Source: a virus (Duplodnaviria; Caudoviricetes). Taken from it: a DNA stretch of 64,000 bases. The stretch's first letter is position 1; each line of letters starts with the position of its first letter. Shown one piece after another: positions 14,222-63,106 of the stretch. The stretch covers positions 47,436 through 111,435 of the IMG/VR virus record IMGVR_UViG_3300033074_000206; one strand, 5' to 3'. The notes below the pieces were generated by a model. It was given only the letters and a program-made list of their open reading frames with translations. It was not told the DNA's origin and searched no databases. A program made the translations under genes and the position numbers.

Positions 14222-14243
14222 AATTTCTCCTTTTTTATTATAT

Positions 14244-14711: not shown

Positions 14712-14887
14712 AAGAAATAAAAGATATACTCTCGATATTTTGTATTAAACTAAGAAAGACTCGCGTAAACACTAAAGATAAGTACTAGACTTCATTCTAA
14801 TACATTCAAAGTGTAATTAAAATGCTTAAAAATAAATTTTTATTTTAACTTTAAGGTTTCTTTAAGGTTTGAATTCTAGACAATAAA

Positions 14888-14916
14888 AAAGCTCAAGAGA
14901 AATTTCTCTTGAGCTT
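14888..14916. terminator. Intrinsic terminator ending the baseplate operon
   Basis: AAAGCTCAAGAG..CTCTTGAGCTTT inverted repeat with A/T tails. Confidence 0.75.
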
Positions 14917-14938
14917 TAAAAACTTACGCATATACGTT

Positions 14939-15502: not shown

Positions 15503-15524
15503 TTTTCATTCCTTTTTATTTTAT

Positions 15525-16730: not shown

Positions 16731-16762
16731 ACTATCTCCTTTTTATTTTATTTATATAAATG

Positions 16763-38323: not shown

Positions 38324-38701
38324 TTATAAATCTTTAATATTAGCGTTGATATCAAAAATGAATTTCTTAAATTCAGATAAATCCGATTCGAATAATACCT
38401 TTCCTTTAAAAGTTACGTTAACGATATCATCCATATCAAATACTTCAATCTTAAAATCCTTAGATATATTTTTATCTATGAAGATTGAGCTTTCTCTATC
38501 ACCCTCAGAAACTTCTAATTTTTCATTAACTTCTTTTTCGCCAGTCCATTCTTTTTTAATTTCTGTGAAGAATTTTTTCTTATCTTCTTCTGATAATTCA
38601 GAAGGACTTTTAACACCGTATTTTTCACACTTTTTAGTGAAAAATTCCTTATAAGATTCCTCGCCTTCTGATTCTCTTAACCATTCTCTAAATGTTTTCA
38701 T
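38324..38701 (-). CDS. Putative internal head protein with capsid-targeting-like leader
   Basis: MKTFREWLRE leader; Y.EFF......YGVKSP.EL....KKKFF..I...W motif. Confidence 0.7.
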   Translation of the reverse strand: MKTFREWLRESEGEESYKEFFTKKCEKYGVKSPSELSEEDKKKFFTEIKKEWTGEKEVNEKLEVSEGDRESSIFIDKNISKDFKIEVFDMDDIVNVTFKGKVLFESDLSEFKKFIFDINANIKDL

Positions 38702-40803: not shown

Positions 40804-41556
40804 TTAATCGAATAGAGCTTCTACTCCATTCAAAATTCCTGTTGCGGTATCTCCGAGAACAGCACTTGTAAGAGCTTCTTTTGTTGTTTGAAGAGGTAAA
40901 AATTCACTAAATGCAAAAACAACAGAAAACTCCGAAAGAGTATTTTCGTCAGAATCATCTAGAGTTACGATACCAACAGATTTAGGAAAAGCATTTTGTA
41001 ATTTGTAACCATACACATTTTCGCCATTATTCCCGAGTTGCCATATATTTACATCTACTTGGTATGTCGGGGTAGATGTTGCTGAATTAGTTCCTGCTAT
41101 ACTACCAATAACCCAATCAAGCGCAATAGTTGGGTTTTTTATAATATTTTTTATTTGGTTTGCGGTTTTAACGAAACTTGATACTTCGCTCAGAAATCCA
41201 GGCATAACCTTTTCAAAACTTGCTCCGACAATCCCTTCGTTTGCAGGCTTAGTATTATCTATTTGAGTCATCCACGTATCAAACATTTTTCTAATTCTCA
41301 TGTCAGAATCATCAACAATAGATATTTCGTACTCACCGATATAGTCGGTTTCTCCTCTCACATTATATTGTCGACCTTTATGCCAAATTGTTGTTTGGTT
41401 GATGTTTCTTTCAGGCAATCCTGCGGATCTACAAAGTATATTTATGGTTTGTCCTTCTACTGTCGGTATTGGTATTTCTATCATAAATTTGTTGCGGCGA
41501 AGTCCGAGACCAGGACCCATGGCTTTTTTTAGGTCTCTTATACTAAATGTCGGCAT
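40804..41556 (-). CDS. Tail tube-like protein (gp19 paralog)
   Basis: R.N.F.I; LCRSA.LP; KGR....RGE..Y; Y.L.NAFP..V....LD; EF.V.F.F. Confidence 0.78.
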   Translation of the reverse strand: MPTFSIRDLKKAMGPGLGLRRNKFMIEIPIPTVEGQTINILCRSAGLPERNINQTTIWHKGRQYNVRGETDYIGEYEISIVDDSDMRIRKMFDTWMTQIDNTKPANEGIVGASFEKVMPGFLSEVSSFVKTANQIKNIIKNPTIALDWVIGSIAGTNSATSTPTYQVDVNIWQLGNNGENVYGYKLQNAFPKSVGIVTLDDSDENTLSEFSVVFAFSEFLPLQTTKEALTSAVLGDTATGILNGVEALFD

Positions 41557-42616: not shown

Positions 42617-44224
42617 TTATTCTAGAGTTAAAATTGAACTAAATTCGTTTGTTCCTGAATTAATCATATTCAATTTAACTGTTTCTACACGATTATTAAA
42701 TTTAATAATCACATTTATTATTATTTCCTTTAAATTATCGCTTTTCGTAACATTTACTCTAGCTCCTGTTATACCACCACTCGCGAGAATATCGTCTAGA
42801 ATAACTTTCATTTCTCTAGCAATAGCACCCCTTTTTTGTAGAGTATTTTCTTCGAAAACCATTTTTCTATTTAGTTTTTCTGTTGCTCTTTCGATATAAT
42901 TTAAAGTATTTCTCAAATACAGATTATCTGCTAAAGATTCATAATCAACAAACATTTTATCAGATAATAGATAATTTTTTCGTAAACTATTTACGCCTTT
43001 TTTATAATAATAGTCGATATCATTCTTATTATGAAAATATCTTATATCTATATAATTTGATTTTATATTATATTTATATCCAGCACAAGTACCCCAAGGG
43101 TTCGTGATTGAATTCATAGCTTTTATTCCGGCGATATCTCCTGAAACGCTTACTAATATGTTTTTATCAGTAAACCCATCTTTTATATATTTTAACCCTA
43201 GTACAAATAAGCAGAATTCAGATTTAGGTAACGAATCCACATAAGAGTCAATTAAATTTCTTGATTTATTATCTAATTTAAATAATTTTTTTATATCTAT
43301 AAGAATATTTTCAGAATAAACTGTATTAGATTCTTCAGATATCTTTATTACTATTGGCGTAGTCGATTCTTCGCTCAAATACCCTGAATCTGATGTTTCG
43401 ACAATTTGTACGGTGTGTAAGCTATCGTCGTATTCTTCTGTTGATAATATCCCATTCGAACTATCGTCGTTATTCGATTTTATCTGAAGAAAATAAAAAA
43501 ATTCAGGAGGTATACTAACGAAAGCAATACAGTCTCTCCTATATTCAGCTAGTTGAATAGCAAGTTCATTATATCTAGAATTTCCTATTATTATGTCTAT
43601 TTCAAAATTTTCTTTTGTGAATATTGAATAAGCTTCTTCAACATCATCGTAAGAAGCTGGTTTTGTATATCCGCCTTGTAATTGGTACGTTCCATTTTCA
43701 AGTATCACAGATTCGATATAATTCGACTCGAAATTTTCCAGATCGTCGTCGATATTAAATTGTAGATGTTCTACTAATATATCTTTTCTATATATTAGTA
43801 CTTGATATTCTTTTTCTATAATCGATAAATCCAATCCTGTTGTATCGTTTTGGATTTTAACAGTCAATAAATCGCCCCATCCACCGACAGTATTCGCTCT
43901 TATTCCGTTATTGTTAGATTTTGTTGAATTCGCCCCAGTAACGCGGTATACTATTAATGGTTTAGAGTACTGAAGATAATTATAGCATTGATACCAATCA
44001 TCGATGAACGGAGCAATTGCTCTACCGAATGTCGTTTTAAACTCTAATGCTGATGATACGACTATTGGTTCATTTACAGGTCCTCTTTCGAATTCGCCTA
44101 CGAATAATGCTATATTTTTAGACGGATCTATAAGAGTGCTACGACTTTCTGATTCTGATGTGATGACATTAGGAGCTATTGTTTGGATTAATCTCGTCTT
44201 TACATTTTCTGTTGACATCGGCAC
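42617..44224 (-). CDS. gp18: Second, divergent, intron-free tail sheath-like protein
   Basis: APNV...E; FVGEFERGPVNEP; DWYQCYNYLQYS; GDIAGI; NPW...AG; LY.R..L.YIE. Confidence 0.85.
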   Translation of the reverse strand: MPMSTENVKTRLIQTIAPNVITSESESRSTLIDPSKNIALFVGEFERGPVNEPIVVSSALEFKTTFGRAIAPFIDDWYQCYNYLQYSKPLIVYRVTGANSTKSNNNGIRANTVGGWGDLLTVKIQNDTTGLDLSIIEKEYQVLIYRKDILVEHLQFNIDDDLENFESNYIESVILENGTYQLQGGYTKPASYDDVEEAYSIFTKENFEIDIIIGNSRYNELAIQLAEYRRDCIAFVSIPPEFFYFLQIKSNNDDSSNGILSTEEYDDSLHTVQIVETSDSGYLSEESTTPIVIKISEESNTVYSENILIDIKKLFKLDNKSRNLIDSYVDSLPKSEFCLFVLGLKYIKDGFTDKNILVSVSGDIAGIKAMNSITNPWGTCAGYKYNIKSNYIDIRYFHNKNDIDYYYKKGVNSLRKNYLLSDKMFVDYESLADNLYLRNTLNYIERATEKLNRKMVFEENTLQKRGAIAREMKVILDDILASGGITGARVNVTKSDNLKEIIINVIIKFNNRVETVKLNMINSGTNEFSSILTLE

Positions 44225-44679: not shown

Positions 44680-45468
44680 ATGGCAAACGTTATTCAAACT
44701 ATGATAAATTCAGCGTTAGGTGATGGAGCGAGAAGCACTAAATTCGACTGCATTATTGGGTTAGACACTTTTTCAGCTGGCTCTAAGACAATAAGTGCTC
44801 TTGTAAAAACAGCGTCTTTTCCCGGAAAGTCTCACGAAGTAATAGATTTAAAATTTAAGGGCAGAAATATTCCTGTAAGAGGACAAACGAAATACGAAAA
44901 TACCTGGTCTTGCACATTTTATCTAGACGAGCAACACTCTTTAAAAAAGGCATTCGAGGACGAAATAGAATCTCTGGATTATCATGCGTACGCAGATACA
45001 AATAGTGTTATCGCTAAAGCAAAAAGTCGAAATAAAAAGAAGTATGCTAGAACATTGACTATTGTTCAGTTAGATTTCGACGGTTCGCAACAAACCGCAG
45101 TTTATAACCTATATAATGTTTTTCCAAAGTCTGTATCGCAAGTTGACGTCGACTACTCTGAAGTTGGTAAAGTACAAGAATTTACTGTTGAATTTTCGTA
45201 TAGTCATTTTGAATCGTTGAATATGAAAAGTTCTAATGGAGGGTTTATTGATAGTATGAAAGAAAGATTTTTAAATGCTGTTGATGGATTAATTCAACAA
45301 GGAGTTGAGTTAGCAACAGATGCATTGGCAGATGTTGTTAGTGGTGCAAGAGATTTATTGTCTAGCTCTGGAGTTTCTGGTGTTTTCTCTAGCATAGGTA
45401 ATTCTATTTCTAGCGGAATATCCTCTCTAGAACAGATGGATTTTAATCCAAGTAATATGATTGAATAG
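44680..45468 (+). CDS. Tail tube-like protein (gp19 paralog)
   Basis: GAR..KF; VKTASFPG; FKGR.IP.RG...Y..TW..TFY; Y.L.NVFP..VS; EFTVEFSY. Confidence 0.8.
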   Translation: MANVIQTMINSALGDGARSTKFDCIIGLDTFSAGSKTISALVKTASFPGKSHEVIDLKFKGRNIPVRGQTKYENTWSCTFYLDEQHSLKKAFEDEIESLDYHAYADTNSVIAKAKSRNKKKYARTLTIVQLDFDGSQQTAVYNLYNVFPKSVSQVDVDYSEVGKVQEFTVEFSYSHFESLNMKSSNGGFIDSMKERFLNAVDGLIQQGVELATDALADVVSGARDLLSSSGVSGVFSSIGNSISSGISSLEQMDFNPSNMIE

Positions 45469-46102: not shown

Positions 46103-49100
46103 TTAACTCCATGCTTTTATTGATACATACCCAGCAACAACAGTAGCACCTGCAGTAGATACTCTAGCTCTTGCAAACGTAGCAGATAGTCCATTCACAG
46201 TTAACTGCACTGTACTTGACGCCACAGCAGTTAGTGGTGTTCCGAGTGCATACCAGTTAGTTCCATCCTCTGATCCTTCTAACTGCAATACTGGAGCAGT
46301 AGTAGCTGTACCAATATTTACTACCAATTGTATATTGTTTGCTGCACCTGAAAACAATGTTGGAGTAGTACTATTTAAAGTAGTCAATACGATACTTCTA
46401 TCCATTAATCTTTTTTGCGGTTCTGCTGGAATAGATGGAAGTATATTTCTAATTACTGCATTAGTAAATGATGGACTAGTTCCAGTAATAGTTCTTACAT
46501 ACCTTATGTGTCTACCACTTGCTCTAAGAATTGGAGTATTATACGAACCCATCGCAGTAATTCTTTGCATCTCATACAATGTTACCCAGTTTGTTGCACC
46601 ATCAAACGATTCTTCTATTCTAACATCCATTGTCGGAGTAGTCCCAGATACAGCTGTAACAGCAATATTTACTTGGAATCCGTTACCTAGATTATTTGCA
46701 ATCGCAGCACTTGTAGAAGTACTAGTTAACGCAGCACTTGCTACATCTAAAATCCCTGTAACCGCTGGGTGTGTATACCATCCACCTAAACCAGTAGTTG
46801 CTGATATTGTTGCAGGACTACCTTGGTAAACACCTGATGAACCACCAACTACGTACATAGGAATAGCCTTAGTTACATCCGCAGTACCTTGCCCATCAAT
46901 TTGTACCATACTTTGTTTATATGTATACCCAATAATATCGTGACTTCTTAATGTAGTTCTCAGAATCACAGTTCCACCACAAGCTGTTGTAGTAATAACA
47001 TTCGTACTATTTGGAGCTAGATACGTCCCAGTATAATCTTGTACAGGCTTAGCTAACATTGTAGTACCTGATAAGTTCATAATCTCATAAACACCATCTA
47101 AACCTAAGTCAGTACCAGTATTTGAAATCAACCCATGAATATTTACATATTCACCAACAGCAGCAGGTGCACCCCATGTACCATTTCCTACAAACGTATA
47201 GATACCATCTGCATTTCTTGCAACTGATTGAACAACCTGTGATACAACCCCTTGTTGATCCACACCACCACAGTTAGTTAATACTACAGTACCTCCATAA
47301 CTAGTAGCTGTTGCTGCAGAACCATGTACAATCGTAAACCGTGTATCATTTACTACAGTCACAGCAGTTGGAGTTGTAATTCCAGCAAAGTTAGTTTGAT
47401 CTAACACACCTTTAATCGTCACAAATTGACCAGTAGCTAATCCATGAGGAGCAATTGTATTAACAGTAGTTGTAGTTGTACCAGCTTTACTAATACTTGC
47501 AATTCTTGCAATTGGTCTACTCATTGACTTTGGAGATACAACTCTAAACCTAACACCGTATGTCTCACTAAAGTCAGGTTTAACACCAGATCTATATGTT
47601 CTTGCACTTGCAACAGTCGATGCATCTACAGATAAATCGTAGAACAGAATACTTTGAGGCTCACTTTTTACCCAGAACTTCGTAGAAGCTTTTACATCAT
47701 AATGACCATTAGATTGATACGCAAACACTGGAGCAGTAGATAAGCATGCTGACATATGTGAAGTATTTAACACACCAGACACTTGCGCCTCATATCCACC
47801 AAACTTACTGATATATGCACATGCTCCAGCTGATGTACTTGAGAATCTCATACCATATCCAGCTGTAGCAGCACCTAATTGAGGTCTATACGTTACAGTT
47901 CCTTGTGAGAACGGTCCAACAGATATTGATGGAATAGCAAGATCATCAGCATATGTACATATAATAGTTTTTCCATCTGCACTTATTGTATTAATACACA
48001 GATTCGAATAGTTCAATCTATTATCACTAGTCACACCACTAACATCGATCCAGTCACCAATATTTAAGCCAACTCCACCAGCTCCACCAATATTAACTGC
48101 AGTAGCAAACGTAATCGTTAGCGTTGTAGTAACTTGTTGAATTGTTGCAATCGGATAACTAGCAACAGTTGGAGCTACACCTAGTGAATCACTATTAACA
48201 ACATCCATTACTGCGAATTGTCCTCTTACCCTTTGAGACATTGATGCCTCTAATCCTAATACATGTGGTATACCTAATGCCTTTGGAAGATTCTGTAAGT
48301 AGATACTAGATTCATGATTATCAACAAGTGGATTCATCGATAACGCAGTTACTAATTGCCCATTAGATGTAGGCTTAACTATCAATGCATCCCCACCATT
48401 TAAGTTAACATTGTAGTACGTTGCAAGCGTAGCAGGTGTTATATCTGGGATAACCTGAATCATATCTCCAAACTGCCCTACCTGAACTGGATTTGCTCTC
48501 AACTGATTATCTGTTAACCCACCAGTAACAACTACAGGAGTAGCTCTTAATTGCGCATCAGTCAATCCTCCTGTTGTTACAGAACCAGTTACTGTTAATG
48601 GGTTACCTGAATCGTTTTTAACTTCAATCTCATTTGAAACTGAAACAGTTCCAGATATAGGTATAGGATTTCCTGAATCATTCGCAATCTCGATTGAACC
48701 GTTCGTTACGGTAACGTTAACCGCACTAGCTCTTAATTGTGTGTCCGTTAACCCAGTTCCTGCTCCAGCTAATGTCAAATTTGATGAACTTGGCGTTCCA
48801 CTTAAATCTACTCCAGTACTTTGATTTCTCCAAATAGCTGTAATAGTTGTCGGCGTATTTGTTACATCTATAACTTGCGTACAAGTTATAGTATCGCCAA
48901 CACTTGCTCCCATGAAAGCAGTTTTACAAGTGTACGTAGTAACAACAAGTTCTCTATCAGCTGTTGCTCCTCCTGAACCTCCCGAACCAACTGCTGGAAT
49001 ACCAGATGTTACGGCTAATTCTCCATCAGTCACAGAACACTTAAAGTAAACTTTGTTTTCGCCATAAGAACTAATATCAACTTGTTCCCTGTACGATAAA

Positions 49101-49237
49101 ATATGAAATTTATCGCCTGTAGATGGAGCGCTATCGCCTATAAAATACTCGACTGTCGCGTTGGTTCTATTAGTTACTATATCACCGCTAACTAATGTCC
49201 AAATATTTTTTTGTAACGTTTGTATTGTTGTTGTCAT
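46103..49237 (-). CDS. Large T/S/G/V-rich virion protein (fibre or spike-like), 1044 aa
   Basis: Late promoter; beta-rich composition; GLTD.QLRA x3 and EI.NDSGNP x2 repeats; duplicated C-terminal EES.DG.NW / EGSEDG.NW domains. Confidence 0.65.
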   Translation of the reverse strand: MTTTIQTLQKNIWTLVSGDIVTNRTNATVEYFIGDSAPSTGDKFHILSYREQVDISSYGENKVYFKCSVTDGELAVTSGIPAVGSGGSGGATADRELVVTTYTCKTAFMGASVGDTITCTQVIDVTNTPTTITAIWRNQSTGVDLSGTPSSSNLTLAGAGTGLTDTQLRASAVNVTVTNGSIEIANDSGNPIPISGTVSVSNEIEVKNDSGNPLTVTGSVTTGGLTDAQLRATPVVVTGGLTDNQLRANPVQVGQFGDMIQVIPDITPATLATYYNVNLNGGDALIVKPTSNGQLVTALSMNPLVDNHESSIYLQNLPKALGIPHVLGLEASMSQRVRGQFAVMDVVNSDSLGVAPTVASYPIATIQQVTTTLTITFATAVNIGGAGGVGLNIGDWIDVSGVTSDNRLNYSNLCINTISADGKTIICTYADDLAIPSISVGPFSQGTVTYRPQLGAATAGYGMRFSSTSAGACAYISKFGGYEAQVSGVLNTSHMSACLSTAPVFAYQSNGHYDVKASTKFWVKSEPQSILFYDLSVDASTVASARTYRSGVKPDFSETYGVRFRVVSPKSMSRPIARIASISKAGTTTTTVNTIAPHGLATGQFVTIKGVLDQTNFAGITTPTAVTVVNDTRFTIVHGSAATATSYGGTVVLTNCGGVDQQGVVSQVVQSVARNADGIYTFVGNGTWGAPAAVGEYVNIHGLISNTGTDLGLDGVYEIMNLSGTTMLAKPVQDYTGTYLAPNSTNVITTTACGGTVILRTTLRSHDIIGYTYKQSMVQIDGQGTADVTKAIPMYVVGGSSGVYQGSPATISATTGLGGWYTHPAVTGILDVASAALTSTSTSAAIANNLGNGFQVNIAVTAVSGTTPTMDVRIEESFDGATNWVTLYEMQRITAMGSYNTPILRASGRHIRYVRTITGTSPSFTNAVIRNILPSIPAEPQKRLMDRSIVLTTLNSTTPTLFSGAANNIQLVVNIGTATTAPVLQLEGSEDGTNWYALGTPLTAVASSTVQLTVNGLSATFARARVSTAGATVVAGYVSIKAWS

Positions 49238-49421: not shown

Positions 49422-52400
49422 TTATGCTCCGCCGATTACTTCGGAAAATGCCCGAGTTCCTGCATTTGTGAATTTCAAATGAATGAATTCCATTTATATT
49501 CATATAGATTCGTTAATTCTATACCGAGCTTTGAGCTCTGCTCCGAATTTCTCCAGAGATTGGACTATATCTTCATCTTTAGATTTCTCTACTAAGATGT
49601 CTACCATTTTGAGACGACTACGTCTCTACTCCCCGTTACAGGATAGTCTCTGAACTTTACTCTTGTCGAGTCTTAGCTGCTGATTTTCTTGCTTTTAATT
49701 TCTTAAAAGTTTAGATTTTCCAGACAATTAGATAGATTATAATTATATATTTCTATATAATGCGCCAAATTAATAATTATTAATATCGTATAGCAACGTA
49801 GGTCGGACGGATGAACACCATTTATATTCATATAGATTCGTTAATTCTATACCGAGCTTCGAACTCTGCTCTGAATTTCTCCAGAGATTAGACTATATCT
49901 TCATCTTATTGATTTAAGATGCAAACCATTTCCTTTTGACTTCAAAAGTACTCCTCTATGAGGATAGTCGTTGAACATTTTTCTCTTTAGAGAAACTTTG
50001 ATGCTGATTATCATTTTAGATTGAATCTAAATTAGACTTTCCAGACAATTAGATTTGTTTAATGTGAACTTTGTTAAATCCACTACTAGTTGATTCCTGC
50101 TTATCACGTCAGGGGTGTTATTAGATTCATCACAGCATTTATATTCATATAGATTCGTTAATTCTATACCGAGCTTTTAACTCTGCTCATAATTTCTTAT
50201 GAGATTGGACTATATCTTTATCCGCTTTGGATAGTTCCTATTTCCATCTACATAGATGTACTCCTCCACGAGGATAGTCTCTGAACTTTGTATTCTATGA
50301 ATACCTTAGCTGCTGATTGTCATTTTAGATTGAAATCTAAATTAGACGTTCCAGACAATTAAAGAACTTTAAATATCGATGTTACCACCGATAGGTGACT
50401 AGCAATTAATCACCATGAAGTCTTGTATACCTCTTCCTGCCTGTACAGACGAAAGGAATGGCTTAACCATACTGATAATTCTATTCATTTATATTCATAT
50501 AGATTCGTTACTTCTATATCGGGCGCTACACCCAGCTCATAATTTCTTACGAGATCAGACTATATCTTATTCTTATACTCTTGTGTATAAGAATCTCTCC
50601 ATTTCGAATCACTTGATTCTACGTACAATGTACTAGTCGTTGAACTTTGTATTCTGACGAATACCTTAGCTGCTGATTGATATATTCTACAATTAGAACT
50701 TAATTATTCCAGACAATTAGAAGAGTTTTCTGTTTATATTGATATAAACAGGCGCAAAATTTTACGCGTAAAATTATCATTAAACTCCATCACTTGATAC
50801 TTCATTTATATTCATTTAAGTTCGTTATTCTTAAATCGAGATTTAACTCTGCTTTATATTTCTATAAAGATTAGACCATATCTTCATCTTAAAAATTTTG
50901 GTTCCATTAAGATGCTCTCTATTTCGAGTTCACTTGAACTCTACGAACTTTCGTTCTGGTCGTTGAATCTTTTTCGCAATGCGAAACTTGACTGCTGATT
51001 ATCATTTTAGATTAGATCTAAATTAGACGTTCCAGACAATTAAAAGAGTTTTTGATGACCAATATTTCAGCCATCTTAGCTAATGCTCTTTCTAGGGTAT
51101 TGCTTACTATATTTAATTAAATTCGTTACATTTAATTGGAGAATATCTCCCTCTGAATTTCTCCAGAGATTGGACTATATCTTAATTATTTCTATAAGAA
51201 ATAATCTGCACCGCTTCGGAAATACTTATTTCCTACTCTACTAGTAATATACGTTCGATAGTCTCTGAACTTTGTTCTTTTATAGAACCTTAGCTGCTTA
51301 TTGATATATCTTAAATTCGATTTAAGACTTAATTATTCAAGACAATTCAATGCATTTTATGGTCTTTCCAATTTTAACCAAAAAGACCTCTAACATTTCA
51401 TATGCATTCGTTCTAATTCGTTAGATTAGAACCGAGCTTTTAACTCTGCTTAATGTTTTCATTAAGATTAGACTATATCTTATTCTTATTCTTATATAAG
51501 AACCAAACCATTTCCACTCACTTGAGTGTACTCACATTACGTGATAGTCGTTGAACTTTTCTATTTCTAGACTTAGCTGCTGATTATCATTTTAGAATCT
51601 TGATCTAAATTAGACGTTCCAGACAATTAGATTTGTTTATCCAGAGCCAATGTTTTAATAAACTCTGTCAACATATTTTATTTAGTATAATCCGCTATTT
51701 TATACCTGGAATTTACCACTCATAATTTCTTATGAGATTAGACTATATCATACATTTTTAACAAGTTGTAAAAAGTTGTAAAAATGTTGCACCGTTTCGA
51801 GATAGCTTTATCTCTACTCCCTCTCGGGATAGTCGTTGAATCTTTTTCTCTATGAGAAACTTGACTGCTGATTGTCGTTTTAGATTGAAATCTAAATTAG
51901 ACGTTCCAGACAATTAGATGCATTTATAGTTCGCGTGACGAATGTTCACGAACTCGCTTTATCTAACAATGTTTTTTGCCCCCAAAGAACTGTCGATTAT
52001 ATTCATTCTAATTCGTTAGATTAGAATCGAGCTTTTAACTCTGCTCTTTATTTCTAAAGAGTCTAGACTATATCTTCATCTTATCAATTTAAGATGCAAA
52101 CCATTTCGATATTACTCAATATCTACGTGCAGAGCACTAGTCGTTGAACTTTTCTATTTCTAGACTTAGCTGCTGATTATCATTTTAGAATCTTGATCTA
52201 AATTAGACGTTCCAGACAATTAGATTTGTTTATTCAGAGCTACATTTAACCCTGACCTGGGAAACTTCATTTATATTCATATAGATTCGTTAATTCTATA
52301 CCGAGCTCGGAGCTCTGCTTTATATTTCTATAAAGATTAGACCATATCTTTATCCTCTAAGGATAGTTCCTATTTCGATATTACTCAATATCTACGTGCA

Positions 52401-55400
52401 GAGCACTGGTCGTTGAATCTTTTTCTCTTAGAGAAACTTGACTGCTTATTGGCGTATTATAGCTCTGCTATAATTTAGCTATCCAAGACAATTAAAGAAC
52501 TTTTTCATTTTATATCTCTATAAAAGGTTGCAATTTTATTTCACAACTGGGTTAATCCCGTTTTTGTATAAGAAATCTCTCCATTATATTCATTCTAATT
52601 CGTTAGATTAGAATCGAGCTTGGAGCTCCGCTCATAATTTCTTATGAGATTGGACTATATCTTCATCTTTAGATTTCTCTATTAAGATGTCTACCATTTC
52701 CACTCACTCGAGTGTACTCCTCCACGAGGATAGTCTCTGAACTTTGTATTCTATGAATACCTTAGCTGCTGATTGATATATTCTTATCATTAAGAACTTA
52801 ATTATTCCAGACAATTAGATAGATACATAATTTATATTTCTATAAACTTCAACTTAAGATTTTTAAATTGACTGTGTCGGATTAAACGCAAGTTTAATAC
52901 AATTTTTGATTTGTCCTCTTTCAAGCATTTTATTCATATAGACTCGTTAATTCTATACCGATCTTATTCTGCTTTATATTTCTATAAAGATTAGACTATC
53001 TCTTATTCCTATATCGACATATAAGAACCTCTCCATTTCGATATCACTCGATATCTACGTGCTACGCACTAGTCGTTGAATCTTTTTCTCGTAATGAGAA
53101 ACTTGACTGCTGATTTGCATATTATATCATCGTTTTATCTAATATAATTTAGCTGTTCCAGACAATTAAAAGAGTTTATAGCAAGCCATAGATTTAACCT
53201 GCTGAGGCCCACCATGATGCTCTATCAGACGACGTTTGAGATCTCAGCCCCGCACAATCCCCTGCAAGATTCACCCAACGGTTTTTATCGTTGTATCTCG
53301 TTTTATTCAGTATAAATCGCAACATTATACCCAAAATTTTAGTTGATAACTCTAAAATTGCTATATATTTCTATATAGACTAGACTATATCTTTACCCTT
53401 CTTATTTTTGCCTTTAGTTAGGGTAGTCACCATTTCGAGTATCATTAGCTTATACTCTACTCCCTCTCAGGATAGTCGTTGAACCTTGTTTTATAAATTA
53501 GTTTAGACTCATCTCGGAGTATATTATTTATTAAGCTATTTTTGCATACCAACCAATCAAATGTAGAAATCCGTATTTATTAGCCATTATTTTACCATTA
53601 ATAGTCTGATATAACTTTGTATTATTTTCGAAAGACCTTCTTAATGCCGTATTAGGTAAATTATATTTGTTGCAAAAATCTATAAAGGAACCTTCGCATA
53701 TATAACTCAATTCATCTTTATAATTATATATTAATATAGTTTTTGTACTGTAATGATTTTTACCATTATTTTTCAATTTATACTCTTCTGTAGCCTTTGT
53801 TATTTTTTGTTTTTTAGCTCCATTTAATAGTGGTTCTTTATGTTTCAATTTATACTCTTCTGTACTTATAGTAATTAGTCTTTTTGTAGTTGCTTCTATT
53901 CTACTGATTTTGTTTTTTAATATTGATTTTTCTGAATATCTCGATTCTTTCCAGTTTTTAATAGCTTCTAATGTTTGCATACCTTTATTACCGTCCTTTC
54001 CATTCTCGGCAATTAAATTAGCCCAATCAGTAGATTCGACTATATTGTTTTCTTCAGAAAATTTCAAAGCAATTGGTTCTACGTAATCTTCATCAGAAAC
54101 ATTTAACGAAAATATACCATATATCTCCATGGTAACTTCATCGCCATGTTTTTGTAAATGTTTCTTCCAATAAACTCCACTTCCATGATAATACTTTTGT
54201 AAATCTTCTACTGTAAAATGTTTAGAAGTTTTACCAAAATATTTCTTTCCTGTTATATTATGTGTAGCAATATATAATGTAACCTTATCTTTCATTCTCG
54301 CTCCTCCGTATAAAAGAACGAAAGGCAAATAACGTTCTTTTATTATATTTATAAAACCTTGGCTGCTGATTGTCCAATCTCAATCTTATTTATCATTTCT
54401 TTTTAAGAAACTATAATTGAGCTCTAAGGATATTCCAGCAATTAAATGACTGTTCGAAAGAAATTTCTTTCTTAAGCGACTTTTCTAAAATCGTATTGAT
54501 ATTTGTAGTTTCCAATCGCACAACAGAACATACTATTAAAATTTAAAGAACCAGTAGTTCTCCAAGTAATAAGAGATTGAACAGCGTCGCTTGATTTTTT
54601 ACCAACCGTGTCAGAGTACTTCGCTCCAATAAAAGCGATCACGTCTTCCCTTGAATCTGCAAGTTCCTTTGCACTTGCACCAGAATCTAATTCGTTACCG
54701 ATTACGGTGTCAATCATTTATATTCATTTTAATTCGTTAGATTAAAATCGAGCTTCGAACTCTGCTTAATGTTTCCATTAAGATTAGACTATATCTTCAT
54801 CTTAAATTAATAAGATGCTCTCCATTTCGATATGACTTCATATCTACGTGCTGCGCACTAGTCGTTGAACTTTGTTCTGTTATAGAACCTTAGCTGCTTA
54901 TTAGCATATTATAGTAGAGCTATAATTTAGCTATCCAAGACAATTAAAAGAGTTTTCATTTTAGAATTACTTCTAAAAGCGACAAATTCCATCGATTTCT
55001 TCTTTATTCATAAATACGTCATAAGCATTTAGTAAATCATCTGCTTGAATATCAGAATCTCTTCCAATAACAAGTTTAATTGTACCAGCATTCGAGAAGA
55101 TATAAGATTTTATAGCTTCAGTAATATCCGTATTGTCTTTAATAAAGATATAAGAACTCCCGTTATTAATAACTGTTTCGATATAAGTACTTTTATTGTT
55201 AATATCTTTAGCCGTAGCATTAAAATCAACAGTAAAAACTTCTTTTATTTCGTCTTCGTATTTAATGATGATACCAACTTGAGTTCCTGTAGGTTTATAT
55301 TCAAATAAATCATCTAAAGAAACACCGTCAAACGCTTTTTTAGAGTTACCGAAATCTCCCGGAACAGCTATTGCTATTTCAAGTTTTTCGGACCATCTAC

Positions 55401-58152
55401 CCGGATTCTTAGCAATTATCTTAATTTTAGAATCAGCATGAGAGAAAGCAATTGAAGTTTCTTTTGTTTCGTAATCATCTGCATTTTCTACAACTAAATA
55501 ATTACCGTAGTACTTATCTGCTGAGATAGAAGCAACTGAACTAGATTTAAGAGCTTCAAAAGTTCCATTTATGTGAGCTTTATAAGAGTTTACTGCTGTT
55601 CCTGTCGTAAAGGCTGTTTCGATATTTCTATCAAGAACAAGTGTAGTATTTGTAGTTGTTGTAACCGTCTTTACGTAATAAAAATTAAGCGTGTCTGTTC
55701 CAAAACTAATTAAATCGCCAACTGCAATTTTTGTAGTGTTAGACACAACTGCAGTAGCAGTACTATTTGCAGTAATTGCTGTTGTTACAGTAACACCTGG
55801 GATAGCTGTGTGTGTTCCACCAGTATTCGCTGCTCTTGAAATAAGTAATTTATTTGAATAACTTAAATAGTTATACGTTTGGTCGATTATATTCATTCTA
55901 ATTCGTTAGATTAGAATCGAGCTTTTAACTCTGCTCTTTATTTCTAAAGAGTCTAGACTATATCTTCATCTTTAGATTGCTCTATTAAGATGTCTACCAT
56001 TTCCACTTACTTAAGTGTACTCCTCTATGAGGATAGTCGTTGAAGTTTAATAATTAAAATAAAGTCGGTATAATTCTTCTACATCTAAAGAATTATTTCT
56101 CCCTTTCTTAGCGTTTTCTTCCCAAGGAATCAATGCTAAATTGTGTTTGCTTGATATCATTTGATACGGTATATTTTGTTTAAATCCATTAAAAATAGAA
56201 AATTTGTGATCTAATTCGTATGAGTCTGGATGAATACGGCTTTTTCTAAGTCCAAAATCTATATTCATTTTTCTATATTCCTTTTCAGTTTCCCTACAAA
56301 CTAAAAATTTATATAATTCGTAATCATTCTTAGATGATAATGGCATCCATATATTCGCAGCTTCTTTAGATAATCTAATCTGATTTTGAAATTCAGCACT
56401 CTTAAAGATACAATCGACACCATACTTCGAAAGATTAGTTTGTTTAGATTTATTTATTATCTCTGGAACTTGAAATGTATACGCAACACCATATTTTTCA
56501 ATCATACTAGGAATATATACAGTATTCATGAAATCGCTAGATTTCATATGATGGTCAACGCCAAAATTGACTATACGAGTTTCCTTTATTTTGTTCTTAA
56601 ACTCGTTATATTGAAATGGGTTAGAAACATTATATCTTTCAAGACAAGTTGATTCTCTTTTTTGCGCAAAAATCTCAGTTCTTTGAAAAATATCGCCATA
56701 TTTTTCAATACAAGTTGATTGTATTTTATCATTTATATTAGAATAATCCGTATTAAGAACTTTCTTAGTTTTTATTTCATCATTTTTCATCGGATGATCA
56801 ACACCGTATTTGATTATATTTGTGACTTTAGATTTCTCTCTAGCTTTTATACCGCCTTGATGTTGTCGACATTTTTTACAATGAGTATTATATCCTTTAT
56901 TAAACGATATATAATTAGTTTCTGATAGACAATATTCGCACAATTTACAACCGTAAAATATATCGTATATCTCTTTAGAAGAAAAAGATATATTATTTAA
57001 ATAATTAGTATCAATACTACCGCTATCCAATAAAATATACTTTTTATATTTCAATAAATCTTCTATATTATCTATATTAAACGATTGTTTTATTTTATTC
57101 GAATACCCTCTATTGAATGATAGAAATTTTATATTTTTATAAAATTCTTTATCTATTTCGAAAATATCATCATATAACTCTTGATAACTTTCGTAGTTTA
57201 ATTTCTTTTTTATAGATTGTTTATTTATTCCGTTATAATATAATTCTTTAGCTTTACACATTTTATTTTAATTATCCTTACCTGCTGATTTTCGTATTTT
57301 ATAATCTATTTATAAAACTTAGACGTTCCAGACAATTAGATAGATTTCTAATATATTATTTCTAATATATATTGGCATTTTCACCAATCATTGTAGTTCT
57401 CATTAGATGGTTTTCCGTAATACGTAATTAATTCATCAACTGAAGTGATTATTTGATATTTATTAACAGGTCCTTGGTGGAAATTTCCACTAAATACTGC
57501 AACTGAATTAGATACTGTCGGTACGATTTGACTCGCGTCGCATTTATATTCATATAGATTCGTTACTTCTATACCGATCTTATTCTGCTCTTTATTTCTA
57601 AAGAGATTAGACTATATCTTATTCTTATATTCTTTTATATAAGAATCTCTCCATTTCGAGATAACTTTATCTCTACGAGCATATGCTCTAGTCGTTGAAC
57701 TTTGTATTCTATGAATACCTTAGCTGCTGATTTTCATTTTAGAATCTTGATCTAAATTAGACGTTCCAGACAATTAGAAGAGTTTTACTTTTTATATCAC
57801 TATAAAAGGAGACCTACTGATCTCTGTAATGAAACTTTTTGTTCATTCTAATTCGTTAGACTAGAACCGATCTTATTCTGCTCCAGATTTCTCTAGAGAA
57901 CGGACTATATCTTAATCTCCTCGGAGATTTGAACCATTTCGAGATAACTTTATCTCTACTCCCAAAGGGATAGTCTCTGAACTTTACTCTATTTTAGAGT
58001 CTTAGCTGCTGATTGATATATTAAAATATATATTCTTTATAATAAGAAATATATTAAACTTAATTATTCCAGACAATTAGATTCATTTATTACTCCGATA
58101 TCGCTAAAGGAGAGTGCAATCATTCCACACCTGGACTTAACATTTCTGCCAT
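49422..58152 (-). CDS. gp18: Tail sheath protein (T4 gp18-like), 637 aa after splicing, split into 18 exons by 17 group I introns. Exons 5'->3': 58152-58127, 57834-57820, 57540-57383, 55883-54991, 54714-54490, 53298-53197, 52925-52867, 52581-52543, 52267-52249, 51993-51948, 51671-51662, 51398-51381, 51102-51069, 50802-50764, 50485-50409, 50135-50078, 49818-49792, 49490-49422
   Basis: Joined exons total 1914 nt in one open frame: MAEMLSPGVFITEIDASQIVPTVSNSVAVFSGNFHQGPVNKYQIITSVDELITYYGKPSNENYNDWYQTYNYLSYSNKLLISRA...KEEIDIDTVIGNE...GNYKYQYDRYNDKNRWVNLAGDCAGLRSQTSSDRASWWASAGLERGQIKNCIKLAFNPTQSMRDFLYKNGINPVVSFPGQGTVLWGQKTLLDKASSFDRVNVRGLFNTLERALAKMAKYQVMEFNDNFTRNRIISMVKPFLSSVQAGRGIQDFMVICDESNNTPDVISRNQLVVDVFIRPTYVAEFIHLKFTNAGTRAFSEVIGGA*. 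Motifs match T4 gp18 (LSPGV, YKYQYD.YND..RWV, FDR.NVR.LF, CD..NNTP.VI.RN). AAGGA RBS precedes the ATG. Track ORFs 54973..55896 and 54472..54717 are exons 4 and 5. Confidence 0.96.
49491..49791 (-). mobile_element. Group I intron 17 (301 nt)
   Basis: P1 TGCT/GGCG with a longer AT-rich loop; conserved core; junction TYVA|EFIH. Confidence 0.9.
49819..50077 (-). mobile_element. Group I intron 16 (259 nt)
   Basis: P1 GTGGAT/GTTCAC; junction LVVD|VFIRP. Confidence 0.92.
50136..50408 (-). mobile_element. Group I intron 15 (273 nt)
   Basis: P1 GGTGAT/GTCACC; junction FMVI|CDES. Confidence 0.92.
50486..50763 (-). mobile_element. Group I intron 14 (278 nt)
   Basis: P1 GCGT/GCGC; junction NFTR|NRII. 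Confidence 0.92.
50803..51068 (-). mobile_element. Group I intron 13 (266 nt)
   Basis: P1 GATGGCT/GGTCATC; junction AKMA|KYQV. Confidence 0.92.
51103..51380 (-). mobile_element. Group I intron 12 (278 nt)
   Basis: P1 GGTCTTTT/GAAAGACC; junction RGLF|NTLE. Confidence 0.92.
51399..51661 (-). mobile_element. Group I intron 11 (263 nt)
   Basis: P1 CAGAGT/GCTCTG; P10 AACATT pairs with 3' exon AATGTT; junction FDRV|NVRG. Confidence 0.92.
51672..51947 (-). mobile_element. Group I intron 10 (276 nt)
   Basis: P1 AGTTCGT/GCGAACT; followed by a 10-nt exon. Confidence 0.92.
51994..52248 (-). mobile_element. Group I intron 9 (255 nt)
   Basis: P1 TCAGGGT/GCTCTGA; junction PGQG|TVLWG. Confidence 0.92.
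52268..52542 (-). mobile_element. Group I intron 8 (275 nt)
   Basis: P1 GTTGT/GCAAC; junction INPVV|SFPG. Confidence 0.92.
52582..52866 (-). mobile_element. Group I intron 7 (285 nt)
   Basis: P1 TCAAT/GTTGA; splicing creates AT|G (QSMRD). Confidence 0.92.
52926..53196 (-). mobile_element. Group I intron 6 (271 nt)
   Basis: P1 GCAGGT/GCTTGC; conserved core; junction ASAG|LERG. Confidence 0.92.
53299..54489 (-). mobile_element. Group I intron 5 (1191 nt) with GIY-YIG ORF; the most divergent intron of the set
   Basis: P1 CGAT/GTCG; P element AATTGCTGGAA rather than AATTGTCTGGAA; ORF between Q and R; junction YQYD|RYND. Confidence 0.92.
53531..54295 (-). CDS. Intron-encoded GIY-YIG homing endonuclease
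   Basis: LYIATHNITGKKYFGKT...YHGSG...ANL motif; start moved to MKDKV (54295) because GGAGGAG RBS lies just upstream. Confidence 0.8.
   Translation of the reverse strand: MKDKVTLYIATHNITGKKYFGKTSKHFTVEDLQKYYHGSGVYWKKHLQKHGDEVTMEIYGIFSLNVSDEDYVEPIALKFSEENNIVESTDWANLIAENGKDGNKGMQTLEAIKNWKESRYSEKSILKNKISRIEATTKRLITISTEEYKLKHKEPLLNGAKKQKITKATEEYKLKNNGKNHYSTKTILIYNYKDELSYICEGSFIDFCNKYNLPNTALRRSFENNTKLYQTINGKIMANKYGFLHLIGWYAKIA
54715..54990 (-). mobile_element. Group I intron 4 (276 nt)
   Basis: P1 CGAT/GTCG; conserved core; junction KEEID|IDTVIG. Confidence 0.92.
56047..57261 (-). CDS. Intron-encoded putative HNH homing endonuclease (404 aa)
   Basis: CxxC...CxxC zinc motifs, repeated T..EKYGV modules, C-terminal ELDHKFS...NL...EN..K HNH-like motif. 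Confidence 0.75.
   Translation of the reverse strand: MCKAKELYYNGINKQSIKKKLNYESYQELYDDIFEIDKEFYKNIKFLSFNRGYSNKIKQSFNIDNIEDLLKYKKYILLDSGSIDTNYLNNISFSSKEIYDIFYGCKLCEYCLSETNYISFNKGYNTHCKKCRQHQGGIKAREKSKVTNIIKYGVDHPMKNDEIKTKKVLNTDYSNINDKIQSTCIEKYGDIFQRTEIFAQKRESTCLERYNVSNPFQYNEFKNKIKETRIVNFGVDHHMKSSDFMNTVYIPSMIEKYGVAYTFQVPEIINKSKQTNLSKYGVDCIFKSAEFQNQIRLSKEAANIWMPLSSKNDYELYKFLVCRETEKEYRKMNIDFGLRKSRIHPDSYELDHKFSIFNGFKQNIPYQMISSKHNLALIPWEENAKKGRNNSLDVEELYRLYFNY
57307..57314 (-). promoter_or_regulatory. Late promoter TATAAATA inside intron 3, upstream of the HNH ORF
   Basis: Exact octamer about 45 nt before the ATG at 57261, with AAGGA RBS between. Confidence 0.55.
57541..57819 (-). mobile_element. 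Group I intron 2 (279 nt)
   Basis: P1 GAGAT/GTCTC; same P/Q/R/S core; ends ...ATATAAATG. Confidence 0.92.
57835..58126 (-). mobile_element. Group I intron 1 of sheath gene (292 nt, no ORF)
   Basis: Exon ends GGTGT and pairs with intron GCAC (P1, U.G). Core P AATTGTCTGGAA, Q AATCAGCAGC, R TTCAGAGACTA, S AAGATATAGTCC. Ends in G. Confidence 0.92.
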
Positions 58153-58434
58153 TTTATATTCCTTTTTATAGCTTACTTTCTGTTTAATAACTTCCACTGA
58201 AAATTATCTCAGAAAAACATTGCAATTTATGATAAAGTTGGAATCTTTATCTAGAATAAGACACGAAGTCTTAAACTCTGCTTTAGTTCTTTTATTTTAA
58301 AAAAGTTTAGCTAAAATTTTTAAGATTAGTTTAGACTCATTTCGGAGTTGATTATCTTAAATTTAAAGAATTAGAATGCGATTTGTATATCCTAATCAAT
58401 TAGTTTATAGACGTTTCGGTCTGAAGATTAAAAT

Positions 58435-58692
58435 TTATTCTTCGGTTCTTTCAAGTCTATCTTTATAACCTTTATCATTGTTTATAAAATTCATAATTAC
58501 ATCAAATTGTTTTTTATCATTAGTCATAATCTTACTATAAAAATGACTTTTATATATTTCTGCATCTTTAATTTTAAGATCTTTTAAAATCCACTCAGCA
58601 GCGTCCATTCCTCTAAGCTGAATATGATACTTGAAACTTTTTACTTCATTTAATTCTTCAGATTCTCTTAACCATTCTCTAAATGTTTTCAT
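58435..58692 (-). CDS. Putative internal head protein
   Basis: MKTFREWLRESEELNE leader. Confidence 0.7.
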   Translation of the reverse strand: MKTFREWLRESEELNEVKSFKYHIQLRGMDAAEWILKDLKIKDAEIYKSHFYSKIMTNDKKQFDVIMNFINNDKGYKDRLERTEE

Positions 58693-58705
58693 TCTTTCTC
58701 CTTTT

Positions 58706-59098
58706 TTAATACTGATTTCTAAAATTTTTAGTAGAACCAGATTTCATAATTTTAAAAATTTTAATAAAGTCAGTAATTGCTTCTTTTGGTGGTCTTAACG
58801 CGCTTGAAAAATATCTATTAAAATCGCCCTCTAAAGTTATTTCATTATATGTTCCAGATGGTTCTGTATTGCCTTTAGATTTTCCAGGATAACCTTCAGT
58901 AAAATATAATTTATCTTGTTCCATATTATATGCTATTCTAACCGTATTCTTCAGTTTTAAATCAACATAATATATTGCCAATATAGCATCTTTGTCGCCA
59001 CCATTATTCTCTGTACCAACAACCCAAAAGTTTTTACCTTTAGCTTCATTTAATTCTCTTGCTTCCTCTTCTCTTAACCATTCTCTGAATGTTTTCAT
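58706..59098 (-). CDS. Putative internal head protein
   Basis: MKTFREWLREEEARELNE leader. Confidence 0.7.
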   Translation of the reverse strand: MKTFREWLREEEARELNEAKGKNFWVVGTENNGGDKDAILAIYYVDLKLKNTVRIAYNMEQDKLYFTEGYPGKSKGNTEPSGTYNEITLEGDFNRYFSSALRPPKEAITDFIKIFKIMKSGSTKNFRNQY

Positions 59099-59116
59099 TC
59101 TTTCTCCTTTTTAATT

Positions 59117-59124
59117 TATTTATA
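59117..59124 (-). promoter_or_regulatory. T4-type late promoter TATAAATA; nearest upstream late promoter seen for the split sheath gene
   Basis: The same octamer precedes many structural genes: minus strand 18651, 32309, 38314, 49259, 61407; plus strand 7564, 44654, 61507. Confidence 0.75.
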
Positions 59125-59661
59125 TTAAAGATTATCTAGAACAAATATCAACGTAGCATCTGCATTTTGATATAATTCTTTATATTGCTTAGACTTTTTA
59201 AATTTTTGAGGTAAATCTTTTTGATTTTTATAAGCTTCTGCTTCCCAAGGCAATTCTTTATACTTCACTAGATCTTTTGTAGTTTTAGATAAATCTTTCA
59301 CACTTATAAAAGGTTCTTTCTTCCAAATAACAAAATTAAGATCCGAAGTATAATCTAATTCTCCTTTTAGATATTGTTTTACGTGAGTAAATTCATGAGC
59401 TATATGACCTAACATTGTTCCGAATTCATATTTTATAACGATATCGTATTTACCAGAAGACATTGCGATTAAATCAATATAACCGAACATTTGTTTAGAA
59501 TCTGGCTTTTTAAGAATTATATTAACTTCTTTTTGAACATCGAAATATTCTTGTAAGAATTTTAGATATCCAGAGATTAAAGAAGATTCGTACGGTTTTA
59601 ATTTACCGATTAACTTTTCATTCAATTCAGATTCTCTCAACCATTCTATAAACTCGTTCAT
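59125..59661 (-). CDS. Putative internal head protein with zincin HExxH domain
   Basis: MNEFIEWLRESELNE leader; IAHEFTHVKQY...PWEAEAY. Confidence 0.72.
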   Translation of the reverse strand: MNEFIEWLRESELNEKLIGKLKPYESSLISGYLKFLQEYFDVQKEVNIILKKPDSKQMFGYIDLIAMSSGKYDIVIKYEFGTMLGHIAHEFTHVKQYLKGELDYTSDLNFVIWKKEPFISVKDLSKTTKDLVKYKELPWEAEAYKNQKDLPQKFKKSKQYKELYQNADATLIFVLDNL

Positions 59662-62089: not shown

Positions 62090-62494
62090 TTATTTCAAAG
62101 ATGTTCTGATAAAAGACATCTTTTGAGGTTTCGTTTCAAATTCCAAATCTTCATTATCTGCTTCATAATCCTTTAAGAACCAAACAAGACCTTTATTTGG
62201 ATTAATTTTAACCAACGGAGCTTGTCCATGACCAACTGCAGAAGTTAATGTTATAAATCTAACTAGATATTCGCCAGATTTCACATCTAAATGTTTAAAT
62301 GCTCCTTTTGAAATCTCTTCTTGCGGAAGATAAATATATCTTTCCTTATTATCTTTGAATCCAAAAACACCAACTTCTTTACCAAAAGCTTTTCCTAACT
62401 TTCTAATAGAATTATCTGCTTCTGCCCAATCGAAATCTCTAAGACTGGTATATATTGTTTGACCTTCTCTTAGCCATTCTCTGAATGTTTTCAT
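62090..62494 (-). CDS. Putative internal head protein
   Basis: MKTFREWLRE leader. Confidence 0.7.
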   Translation of the reverse strand: MKTFREWLREGQTIYTSLRDFDWAEADNSIRKLGKAFGKEVGVFGFKDNKERYIYLPQEEISKGAFKHLDVKSGEYLVRFITLTSAVGHGQAPLVKINPNKGLVWFLKDYEADNEDLEFETKPQKMSFIRTSLK

Positions 62495-62515: not shown

Positions 62516-63106
62516 TTATATTTTAGTTAATTTAATATCTGTATTTATAATAGCATACCAAATATTATTTGTACTTTTATCTTGTATTTGAAATGTACCA
62601 TCTAATTTGATGTATTTATTCCAAGCTTTAACAAAGTTCTCCGTACCAAACTTTTCAGCTAATTCTATTTGGAACCATCTAATTTGGGTGCTTTTCATTT
62701 TATCATATAATTTTTCTAAATGATAATCTTGTACATCTTCAGGTTCATATACTGCAAAATTATAGTCAGTTAATAAATACCAAAGAGGTTCATTATCCAT
62801 TTTGTGTAGCTCTTGTAAAAGTTTTACTGTTGAAGCTTTATTTAATTTAGATACATTTGCTCTAGAATCAATAAATTTCTTATGATTTATTTCTGTTTTA
62901 ACAATATCTTTACCATAAGCTTGCGCAGTTTCTAATAATGTTCCAAAATATATCCCAACCCCTTCCTGATTGTTACTATCGGCATGCAACATCCATTTTG
63001 GTTCAATTTTAGTAGTGCCGAAATTATCGCCATGGTATACTGTTATTAATGTATTTGCTTCTCTCAACCATTCTCTAAATTCAGCTTTTATTTTTTCTCT
63101 ATCCAT
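62516..63106 (-). CDS. Putative internal head protein with ADP-ribosyltransferase-like domain
   Basis: ...EFREWLRE leader; VYHG...G.GIYF......A..YG motif. Confidence 0.6.
   Translation of the reverse strand: MDREKIKAEFREWLREANTLITVYHGDNFGTTKIEPKWMLHADSNNQEGVGIYFGTLLETAQAYGKDIVKTEINHKKFIDSRANVSKLNKASTVKLLQELHKMDNEPLWYLLTDYNFAVYEPEDVQDYHLEKLYDKMKSTQIRWFQIELAEKFGTENFVKAWNKYIKLDGTFQIQDKSTNNIWYAIINTDIKLTKI

Follow-up and report, generated by a model that had tools for sequence, protein, structure and literature searches.

Seventeen group I introns in one bacteriophage tail sheath gene: reconstruction, likely origin and relation to known arrays

How does a bacteriophage come to carry a tail sheath gene of which 78% is intron, and can such a gene still be at work? 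The question is raised by positions 49422–58152 (minus strand) of a 64,000-nt stretch, hereafter the window, which has about 30% G+C and forms the last 64 kb of the linear virus record IMGVR_UViG_3300033074_000206 (111,435 bases). The locus holds a gp18-type tail sheath gene of 18 exons (1914 nt coding, 637 aa) separated by 17 elements of group I anatomy. The answer that best fits the evidence, with a probability of roughly 0.8, is that this is the working main sheath gene and that its 17 self-splicing introns are selfish elements that accumulated by homing, mostly lost their open reading frames (ORFs), and exchanged parts of their cores.

Reconstruction of the split gene

To obtain the splice map, a profile built from 36 intronless sheath proteins was aligned to the region with splicing allowed. 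The alignment returns exactly 17 introns (6817 nt of the 8731-nt gene) and 18 exons, which join into a frame whose single stop codon is the terminal one. When freed of the rule that each intron is preceded by U and ends in G, the alignment scores equally and returns introns of identical length in all 17 cases; at 17 of 17 junctions, the protein evidence is therefore in keeping with the rule. The joined sheath is 80.6% identical, over 638 columns with one gap, to that of an intronless relative (P0001) and 67% identical to the annotated sheath of Vibrio phage TDDLMA; homology to gp18-type sheaths is full length, and the homologs bear PF04984 and PF17482. Family searches were made with P0001 and single exons in place of the joined protein, and the large exon 4 as query retrieves sheath proteins of 630–650 aa with up to 73% identity. 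The gene is located in a T4-like morphogenesis module, with a portal gene (PHROG 213) upstream and gp19-like tube genes downstream.

The original prediction had arrived at the same numbers of introns, exons, nucleotides and residues, the same U and G at every intron's borders, the same intron fraction and the same sheath identity, all of which are reproduced here; both junction peptides that it named are present in the joined conceptual protein. It had also expected standard gene callers to overlook the gene, and indeed only a 307-aa exon-4 ORF and an 81-aa piece are called. Its count of ten junctions that split codons has to be corrected to nine of 17, ten being reached only if intron 16 is moved by one base, a shift disfavoured by the P1 pairing and by the homologs.

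The following map comes from the spliced profile alignment, runs in the direction of translation with all features on the minus strand, and gives each intron its site in the coding sequence; the short introns are matched by the Rfam model RF00028 as well. The gene begins with exon 1 (58127–58152, 26 nt, start codon), intron 1 (57835–58126, 292 nt, site 26, a site occupied in 11 other loci), exon 2 (57820–57834, 15 nt), intron 2 (57541–57819, 279 nt, site 41, a site not seen elsewhere) and exon 3 (57383–57540, 158 nt). Intron 3 (55884–57382, 1499 nt, site 199) contains an ORF in its P6 loop and leads to exon 4 (54991–55883, 893 nt), the intron-free, variable middle of the protein; after intron 4 (54715–54990, 276 nt, site 1092) and exon 5 (54490–54714, 225 nt) comes the second ORF-bearing element, intron 5 (53299–54489, 1191 nt, site 1317), which also has its ORF in the P6 loop and whose core stands apart from the other 16. 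Exon 6 (53197–53298, 102 nt) and exon 7 (52867–52925, 59 nt) flank intron 6 (52926–53196, 271 nt, site 1419); intron 7 (52582–52866, 285 nt, site 1478), exon 8 (52543–52581, 39 nt), intron 8 (52268–52542, 275 nt, site 1517) and exon 9 (52249–52267, 19 nt) precede intron 9 (51994–52248, 255 nt, site 1536), the other intron at a site not seen elsewhere. Exon 10 (51948–51993, 46 nt) is separated by intron 10 (51672–51947, 276 nt, site 1582) from exon 11 (51662–51671), at 10 nt the smallest, after which follow intron 11 (51399–51661, 263 nt, site 1592), exon 12 (51381–51398, 18 nt), intron 12 (51103–51380, 278 nt, site 1610), exon 13 (51069–51102, 34 nt), intron 13 (50803–51068, 266 nt, site 1644) and exon 14 (50764–50802, 39 nt). 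The 3′ end of the gene is made up of intron 14 (50486–50763, 278 nt, site 1683), exon 15 (50409–50485, 77 nt), intron 15 (50136–50408, 273 nt, site 1760), exon 16 (50078–50135, 58 nt), intron 16 (49819–50077, 259 nt, site 1818), exon 17 (49792–49818, 27 nt), intron 17 (49491–49791, 301 nt, site 1845) and exon 18 (49422–49490, 69 nt, stop codon). The median exon length is 42 nt.

Intron anatomy and the need for splicing

All 15 introns without an ORF (255–301 nt each) exceed the gathering score of RF00028 (62–91 bits, within 49541–58136, all on the minus strand), and the two ORF-interrupted ones, introns 3 and 5, give partial matches of 36–37 bits, below the cut-off, with all core motifs present; the group I class proposed earlier is thereby upheld by the covariance model. 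The core motifs that had been listed are found in all 17 introns, although only 13 of them match the quoted P motif exactly and four have variants of Q. Searches of the 111-kb genome with Rfam and with a model derived from the introns themselves detect no further copy of the family. A DNA pattern scan for intron 3′ ends gave mostly chance matches.

In all 17 introns, P1 has a U·G pair at the 5′ splice site and 4–8 contiguous pairs to the intron's own upstream exon, and the guides make 96 exon pairs in total versus 56.5 for permuted exons, a value reached by none of 100,000 permutations. Every intron ends in the terminal guanosine (omega-G). Pairing in the P3 pseudoknot is complete (102 of 102 positions) across several sequence versions (covariation; permuted mean, 65.5), and P7 shows a compensatory two-sided change in introns 8 and 13, the R and S elements being otherwise conserved. 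By a simple count made without a control, 15 introns offer 3–7 possible P10 pairs with the 3′ exon. As read from the alignment and the module table, two helices (P7.1 and P7.2) lie between P7 and P3 and there is no P5abc; because of this position of P7.1/P7.2, the introns appear close to subgroup IA2 (the phage td/Twort type), an IA2-like placement set by helix layout. Intact anatomy throughout predicts that all 17 are capable of self-splicing.

Each retained intron (17 of 17) brings an in-frame stop within 48 nt, and therefore the full protein requires 17 excisions. In the micro-exon region, the comparison with a relative (L203, described below) gives 61 synonymous and 9 non-synonymous codon differences, which shows the exons to be under purifying selection. 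Taken together with the 17 excisions needed, this argues that the gene is selected to be made and its introns to splice. The RNA evidence consists of contigs from four runs, and contigs cannot separate DNA, pre-mRNA and mRNA. In one of these runs (X9), a contig about 90% identical to the window joins 58127 to 57539 with 16 letters between and 57388 to 55851 with 37 letters between, so that exons 1-2-3 and 3-4 are joined at exactly the predicted lengths; a matching joint in run X2 has a variant in common with this contig. These joints were rejected as a record of splicing, since about 90% identity denotes another strain that may simply lack those introns; they confirm the exon boundaries, not splicing.

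Sites, and probable homing and exchange between introns

Roughly 150 loci of relatives, duplicates included, were fetched. In the majority, the sheath gene is intronless, and about 35 carry the same intron family in it. The nearest cultured sheath relatives, Vibrio phages Va1, TDDLMA and pv27 (about 195 kb, 67% identity), are all intronless, and Campylobacter phage sheaths come next at 40–50% identity. Neither the Vibrio phages nor a GTDB bin labelled Bacteroidetes, which has a 60% relative on a 5-kb contig, counts as evidence of the host. Five sheath introns are found in L009/L038 and another five in a 2.8-kb fragment (L204), while L203 (JACCED012106166.1, 1–5090) holds an incomplete sheath gene in whose C-terminal half, from codon 364 on, 11 introns lie; all 11 exceed the Rfam threshold, have U|G junctions and keep the frame. 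Four of the L203 sites (1343, 1530, 1658 and 1864) are absent from the window, and the intron at 1530 has a 319-aa ORF on the opposite strand. A distant sheath gene (L266; IMGVR_UViG_3300026484_000248, 3500–17000) extends over about 13 kb with some ten group I introns, many with long inserts. As a separate observation, an intron of the same family (L027:2354-2583) lies beside the start of a distant (24%) sheath-like gene.

The sites themselves are shared to a great extent. Except for sites 41 and 1536, all window sites (15 of 17) have an intron at the very same nucleotide position in other phages, in ten cases beyond the closest lineage, and about a dozen further sites are found only in relatives. 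They lie in the conserved termini of the protein, where local conservation is 0.905 versus a gene mean of 0.765 (0 of 20,000 draws), and none falls within residues 100–350. Dense sheath introns are thus a clade-wide trend and not unique to this genome.

Only introns 3 and 5 bear endonuclease-type ORFs, in both cases in the peripheral P6 loop. That of intron 3 (56047–57261, minus strand, 404 aa) is homing-endonuclease-like (PHROG 3339, DUF7487 repeats), with an HNH-like C-terminal motif recognised by eye, and that of intron 5 (53531–54295, minus strand; ATG at 54295, open frame from 54328) is GIY-YIG/SegE-like, though a PDB sequence search with it returned nothing meaningful. Among the 17 introns, these two alone contain the T4-type late promoter consensus TATAAATA, upstream of the ORF at 57307–57314 in intron 3 and at 54346–54353 in intron 5 (both on the minus strand). 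At seven or more sites, among them 26, 199, 1092, 1582, 1610, 1644 and 1760, relatives have introns of 1–1.8 kb with long ORFs, several of which match GIY-YIG, NUMOD3 or DUF7487. Shared sites, ORFs in relatives and late promoters are the pattern of homing, ORF loss and accumulation. Three intron ORFs of relatives (L231:3205-3837, L188:2469-3656 and L233:2107-2949) are opposite in strand to the sheath gene. A hairpin motif, alike at 18 of 19 nt, occurs at 58330–58348 in the 280-nt non-coding sheath leader and at 53502–53520 in the 3′ part of intron 5 past the endonuclease stop, with no further copies in the genome at up to 3 mismatches; it is perhaps a remnant of a related endonuclease cassette.

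The introns of the window are pairwise 51–80% identical, unevenly so, as identical helices recur in differing combinations. Exact shared tracts measure 96 nt between introns 9 and 11, 89 nt between 3 and 9, and 63 nt between 7 and 15, and P9 is identical in six of ten L203 introns compared. Across phages, P1/P2 identity is 0.79 for same-site pairs versus 0.50 otherwise, whereas P5, P6, P7.1/7.2, P8, P9 and the 3′ end hardly track the site (P6, for example, 0.68 versus 0.66). Correlations between the similarities of different modules are near zero, identity runs reach p ≤ 0.0005 in 26 of 136 intron pairs, and site incompatibility climbs with distance from 0.63 to 0.79. In a tree of the cores, 16 introns of the window cluster with those of L203/L204 in a single clade irrespective of site (100/99), intron 5 falls outside it among introns of distant phages, and the introns of intron-poor distant phages group partly by site. 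We read these mosaics as probable gene conversion between tandem introns, with the conserved core motifs serving as homology, while copying to new sites is an alternative that may account for a few of them. A broader proposition, which we consider somewhat less than an even chance, is that the introns form a recombining population within one gene: the P1/P2 guide would be fixed to its exon, core helices would be swapped so that the ribozymes evolve in concert, and new introns with their endonuclease cargo could be assembled as DNA from a new guide and a core already present. If so, introns could be retargeted without reverse transcription, and the gene would hold a natural library of 17 or more interchangeable, very efficient minimal ribozymes, arranged in tandem around exons of 10–40 nt on a ribosome-coupled mRNA. 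No report of exchange among group I introns at different sites of one gene was found in a literature coverage that is incomplete, the yeast omega case being the only one to compare.

The history that would account for these findings can be outlined as follows. The split gene would be the phage's working main tail sheath, presumably transcribed late. Each of the 17 IA2-like ribozymes is predicted to fold, to pair its guide with the last 4–8 nt of the preceding exon and to excise itself by the two-step, guanosine-initiated reaction, giving one message of 637 codons. Some 30 sites in the best-conserved stretches of the gene family would form a pool for introns, and each of them probably spread by homing while its intron had an endonuclease. 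Through repeated co-infection, this lineage may have gathered 17 introns, 15 of which then lost their ORFs, precise intron loss being rare or reversed by re-homing. With related introns side by side, recombination or gene conversion between core motifs would swap P5, P6, P7.1/7.2, P8 and P9, the site-specific 5′ end (P1/P2) staying with its exon. The array would accordingly be a tolerated, nearly neutral selfish load and not a control device; late transcription, self-splicing of all 17 introns, spread by homing, conversion as the cause of the mosaics and near-neutrality are the parts of this outline that we infer.

Several points weigh against this account. At 99, 95 and 90% excision per intron, the computed yield of complete messages is 84, 42 and 17%, and the last two values would burden a high-copy virion protein appreciably, so that neutrality is not assured. 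The contigs of the RNA runs contain no spliced junction assignable to this strain, and wastewater RNA runs gave near-identical contigs in which several exon–intron borders are left unspliced. The full P1 of introns 4, 5, 14 and 17 (4 contiguous pairs) requires bulges, and introns 2 and 3 have little or no P10 (1–2 pairs by the same simple count). The p values of the identity runs are optimistic because paired stems break the independence of columns that the test assumes. The core tree, whose bootstrap is rough and not converged, could also reflect local copying to new sites.

That local copying could have produced most of the array is unlikely. One founder ribozyme would have been copied to new sites in the same gene with its guide re-tuned, either by reverse splicing into the abundant sheath mRNA and capture or by ectopic recombination. 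The clustering of 16 of 17 cores by phage lineage and not by site speaks for it, as does the confinement of the family to the sheath gene within the 111-kb genome; besides, sites 41 and 1536 are the ones not seen in other phages, and intron 9, at 1536, has the longest exact tracts with its neighbours. However, the match of 15 sites to other phages' introns, ten of them beyond the closest lineage, is hard to reconcile with it; same-site introns are alike in P2 and the P1 loop, which the exon does not dictate, the similarity is mosaic and not whole-intron, and the reverse-splicing route is, according to PMC3984707, without direct evidence. Local copying may nonetheless explain the birth of a few sites. 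Somewhat less probable again is a benefit of the array, whether because occupied sites are immune to the endonucleases of co-infecting relatives, because the introns break conserved CRISPR targets, or because splicing delay or exon skipping tunes sheath output. Relatives do have endonuclease-type ORFs at many of the same sites, a role of intron endonucleases in phage competition is published (PMC11620839), Twort orf142 and SIOphi polA both show exon skipping (PMC11878797), and 8 of 18 exons have lengths that are multiples of three. Yet most relatives, including cultured Va1, TDDLMA and pv27, do without introns, occupancy is patchy as homing cycles predict, and neither a conserved set of introns nor a regulatory element came to light; skipping within the polymerising domain would probably yield a dead protein.

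The two remaining explanations deny either the gene or the array, and both are very improbable. If the split gene were dead or dying, the sheath might be supplied by the second, uninterrupted sheath-like gene at 42617–44224 (minus strand, 535 aa), which has a match to PHROG 23 (E 5e-36) and a profile match over its full length. This paralog is, however, only about 28% identical to the split gene and belongs to a family of its own that also stands beside intronless main sheaths in relatives (L045, L168), and for both reasons it is unlikely to be a replacement; the split gene has neither a frameshift nor a premature stop, shows a strong synonymous bias and has kept P1, P3 and P7 in all 17 ribozymes. 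Still harder to credit is an assembly artefact, in which repeats of several strains would have been chained or scrambled by the assembler. The exact tracts shared between introns could favour such an error, no single contig spans the whole array, and X1, whose contigs tile the region with zero differences (pieces of 3166, 1628 and 720 nt crossing several junctions), may be the source sample. Against this, exon order and frame are perfect, and contigs of RNA runs from a separate wastewater study match at 99–100% over whole introns and junctions at 52842–53390, 50971–51275 and 51963–52225. Intron 9 is wholly covered by such an independent contig without differences, so its mosaic is not an assembly product. 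L203, L204 and L266, assembled independently, have dense arrays of their own. The array is not a misassembly: the same intron family stands at 15 of its 17 sites, to the nucleotide, in other phages, one of which has 11 introns in half a gene.

Known systems and genomic context

The T4 genes td, nrdB and nrdD, all of nucleotide metabolism, each contain one group IA2 intron with an I-TevI-type endonuclease. The sheath introns resemble them in P7.1/P7.2, in the ORF within a peripheral loop (L6, as in td) and in the late promoter ahead of the intron ORF; unlike them, 17 are gathered in one gene. Fungal cox1 genes, which hold many group I introns, are likewise a case of homing introns accumulated in one conserved gene. 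In yeast mitochondria, omega introns became mosaics by gene conversion (PMC4059233), but these are alleles of an organellar intron at one site, whereas modules are common here to introns at different sites.

The closest counterpart is found in a eukaryotic giant virus. Faustovirus capsid genes have 13–18 introns drawn from 25 sites and attributed to homing endonucleases (PMC7290515), though in Faustovirus E12 only five of twelve capsid introns are recognised by Rfam as group I (PMC6247863). In both systems, a major virion gene has collected many introns from a pool of sites, a minority with endonuclease ORFs (GIY-YIG in Faustovirus), and the introns are almost confined to that gene; in Faustovirus, birth and death by homing are described. 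Splicing there was demonstrated by RNA-seq; for the sheath introns it is predicted. The Faustovirus gene is 17 kb long with introns of 0.3–4.6 kb; the present one belongs to a bacteriophage with coupled translation and differs in its 15 minimal ribozymes of 255–301 nt, in the complete group I anatomy of all 17 introns, in exons down to 10 nt and in the apparent exchange of core modules between sites.

Among phages, the tail tube gene orf142 of Staphylococcus phage Twort contains three group I introns (Landthaler and Shub 1999, as summarised in PMC11878797). It is, according to that summary, also a late structural tail gene with several group I introns and short exons, distinguished from the sheath gene by three introns versus 17, by encoding tube instead of sheath, and by proven splicing and exon skipping where splicing is here predicted. 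Bastillevirinae polA and terL have up to three group I introns per gene (PMC11878797), and one capsid gene of a crAss-like phage is broken into five fragments, crAss-like Zeta phages having up to 14 group I introns per genome (PMC7886860). Jug phages average 18.5 introns per genome, with splicing supported by metatranscriptomes (PMC12880540). Zeta and Jug phages thus resemble this phage in their many group I introns, capsid genes included, but there they are distributed over many genes, with two to five fragments each in the cases cited, whereas all introns detected in the 111-kb record are in one gene.

The literature found supports 17 as the most group I introns reported for any bacteriophage gene. 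The original prediction was right as to gene identity, intron class and reconstruction, and its description of the array as extreme for a phage holds, the highest values found elsewhere being three introns or the five fragments of the crAss-like capsid gene; to call it undescribed in a high-copy structural gene was too strong in view of Faustovirus and of the relative with 11 introns in half a gene. Judged by that literature, the number of group I introns in one phage gene rises from three or four to 17, and the Faustovirus capsid gene gains a counterpart in a bacterial virus. In one small construct, three old questions become open to direct test: how ribozymes in tandem splice around 10-nt exons without skipping them, what cost of splicing is bearable for an essential high-copy gene when translation is coupled, and by what path group I introns arrive at new sites, for which module exchange offers a DNA-level route. 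As natural, modular ribozymes, the 17 introns make up a panel ready for use. In practice, gene callers fail to see an essential marker gene throughout a whole clade of environmental T4-like phages.

Directly ahead of the sheath gene (58153–59124), no late promoter consensus is present, and the nearest lies at 59124, so the gene is probably co-transcribed with two small upstream ORFs. Immediately after the sheath gene, a 1044-aa ORF (46103–49237, minus strand), low in complexity, beta-rich-looking and without a family match, may encode a fibre or adhesin; L203 has a related ORF after its sheath as well. Three intronless gp19-like tail-tube paralogs lie at 37716–38291 (minus), 40804–41556 (minus) and 44680–45468 (plus). 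Six small, otherwise unrelated ORFs, all on the minus strand (38324–38701, 58435–58692, 58706–59098, 59125–59661, 62090–62494 and 62516–63106), begin with the same kind of leader (MKTFREWLRE-like), which recalls the sequence that targets T4 internal proteins to the capsid. Beyond the window, at G000:C1:17592-17848, lie three tRNA genes, for Ser, Thr and Arg.

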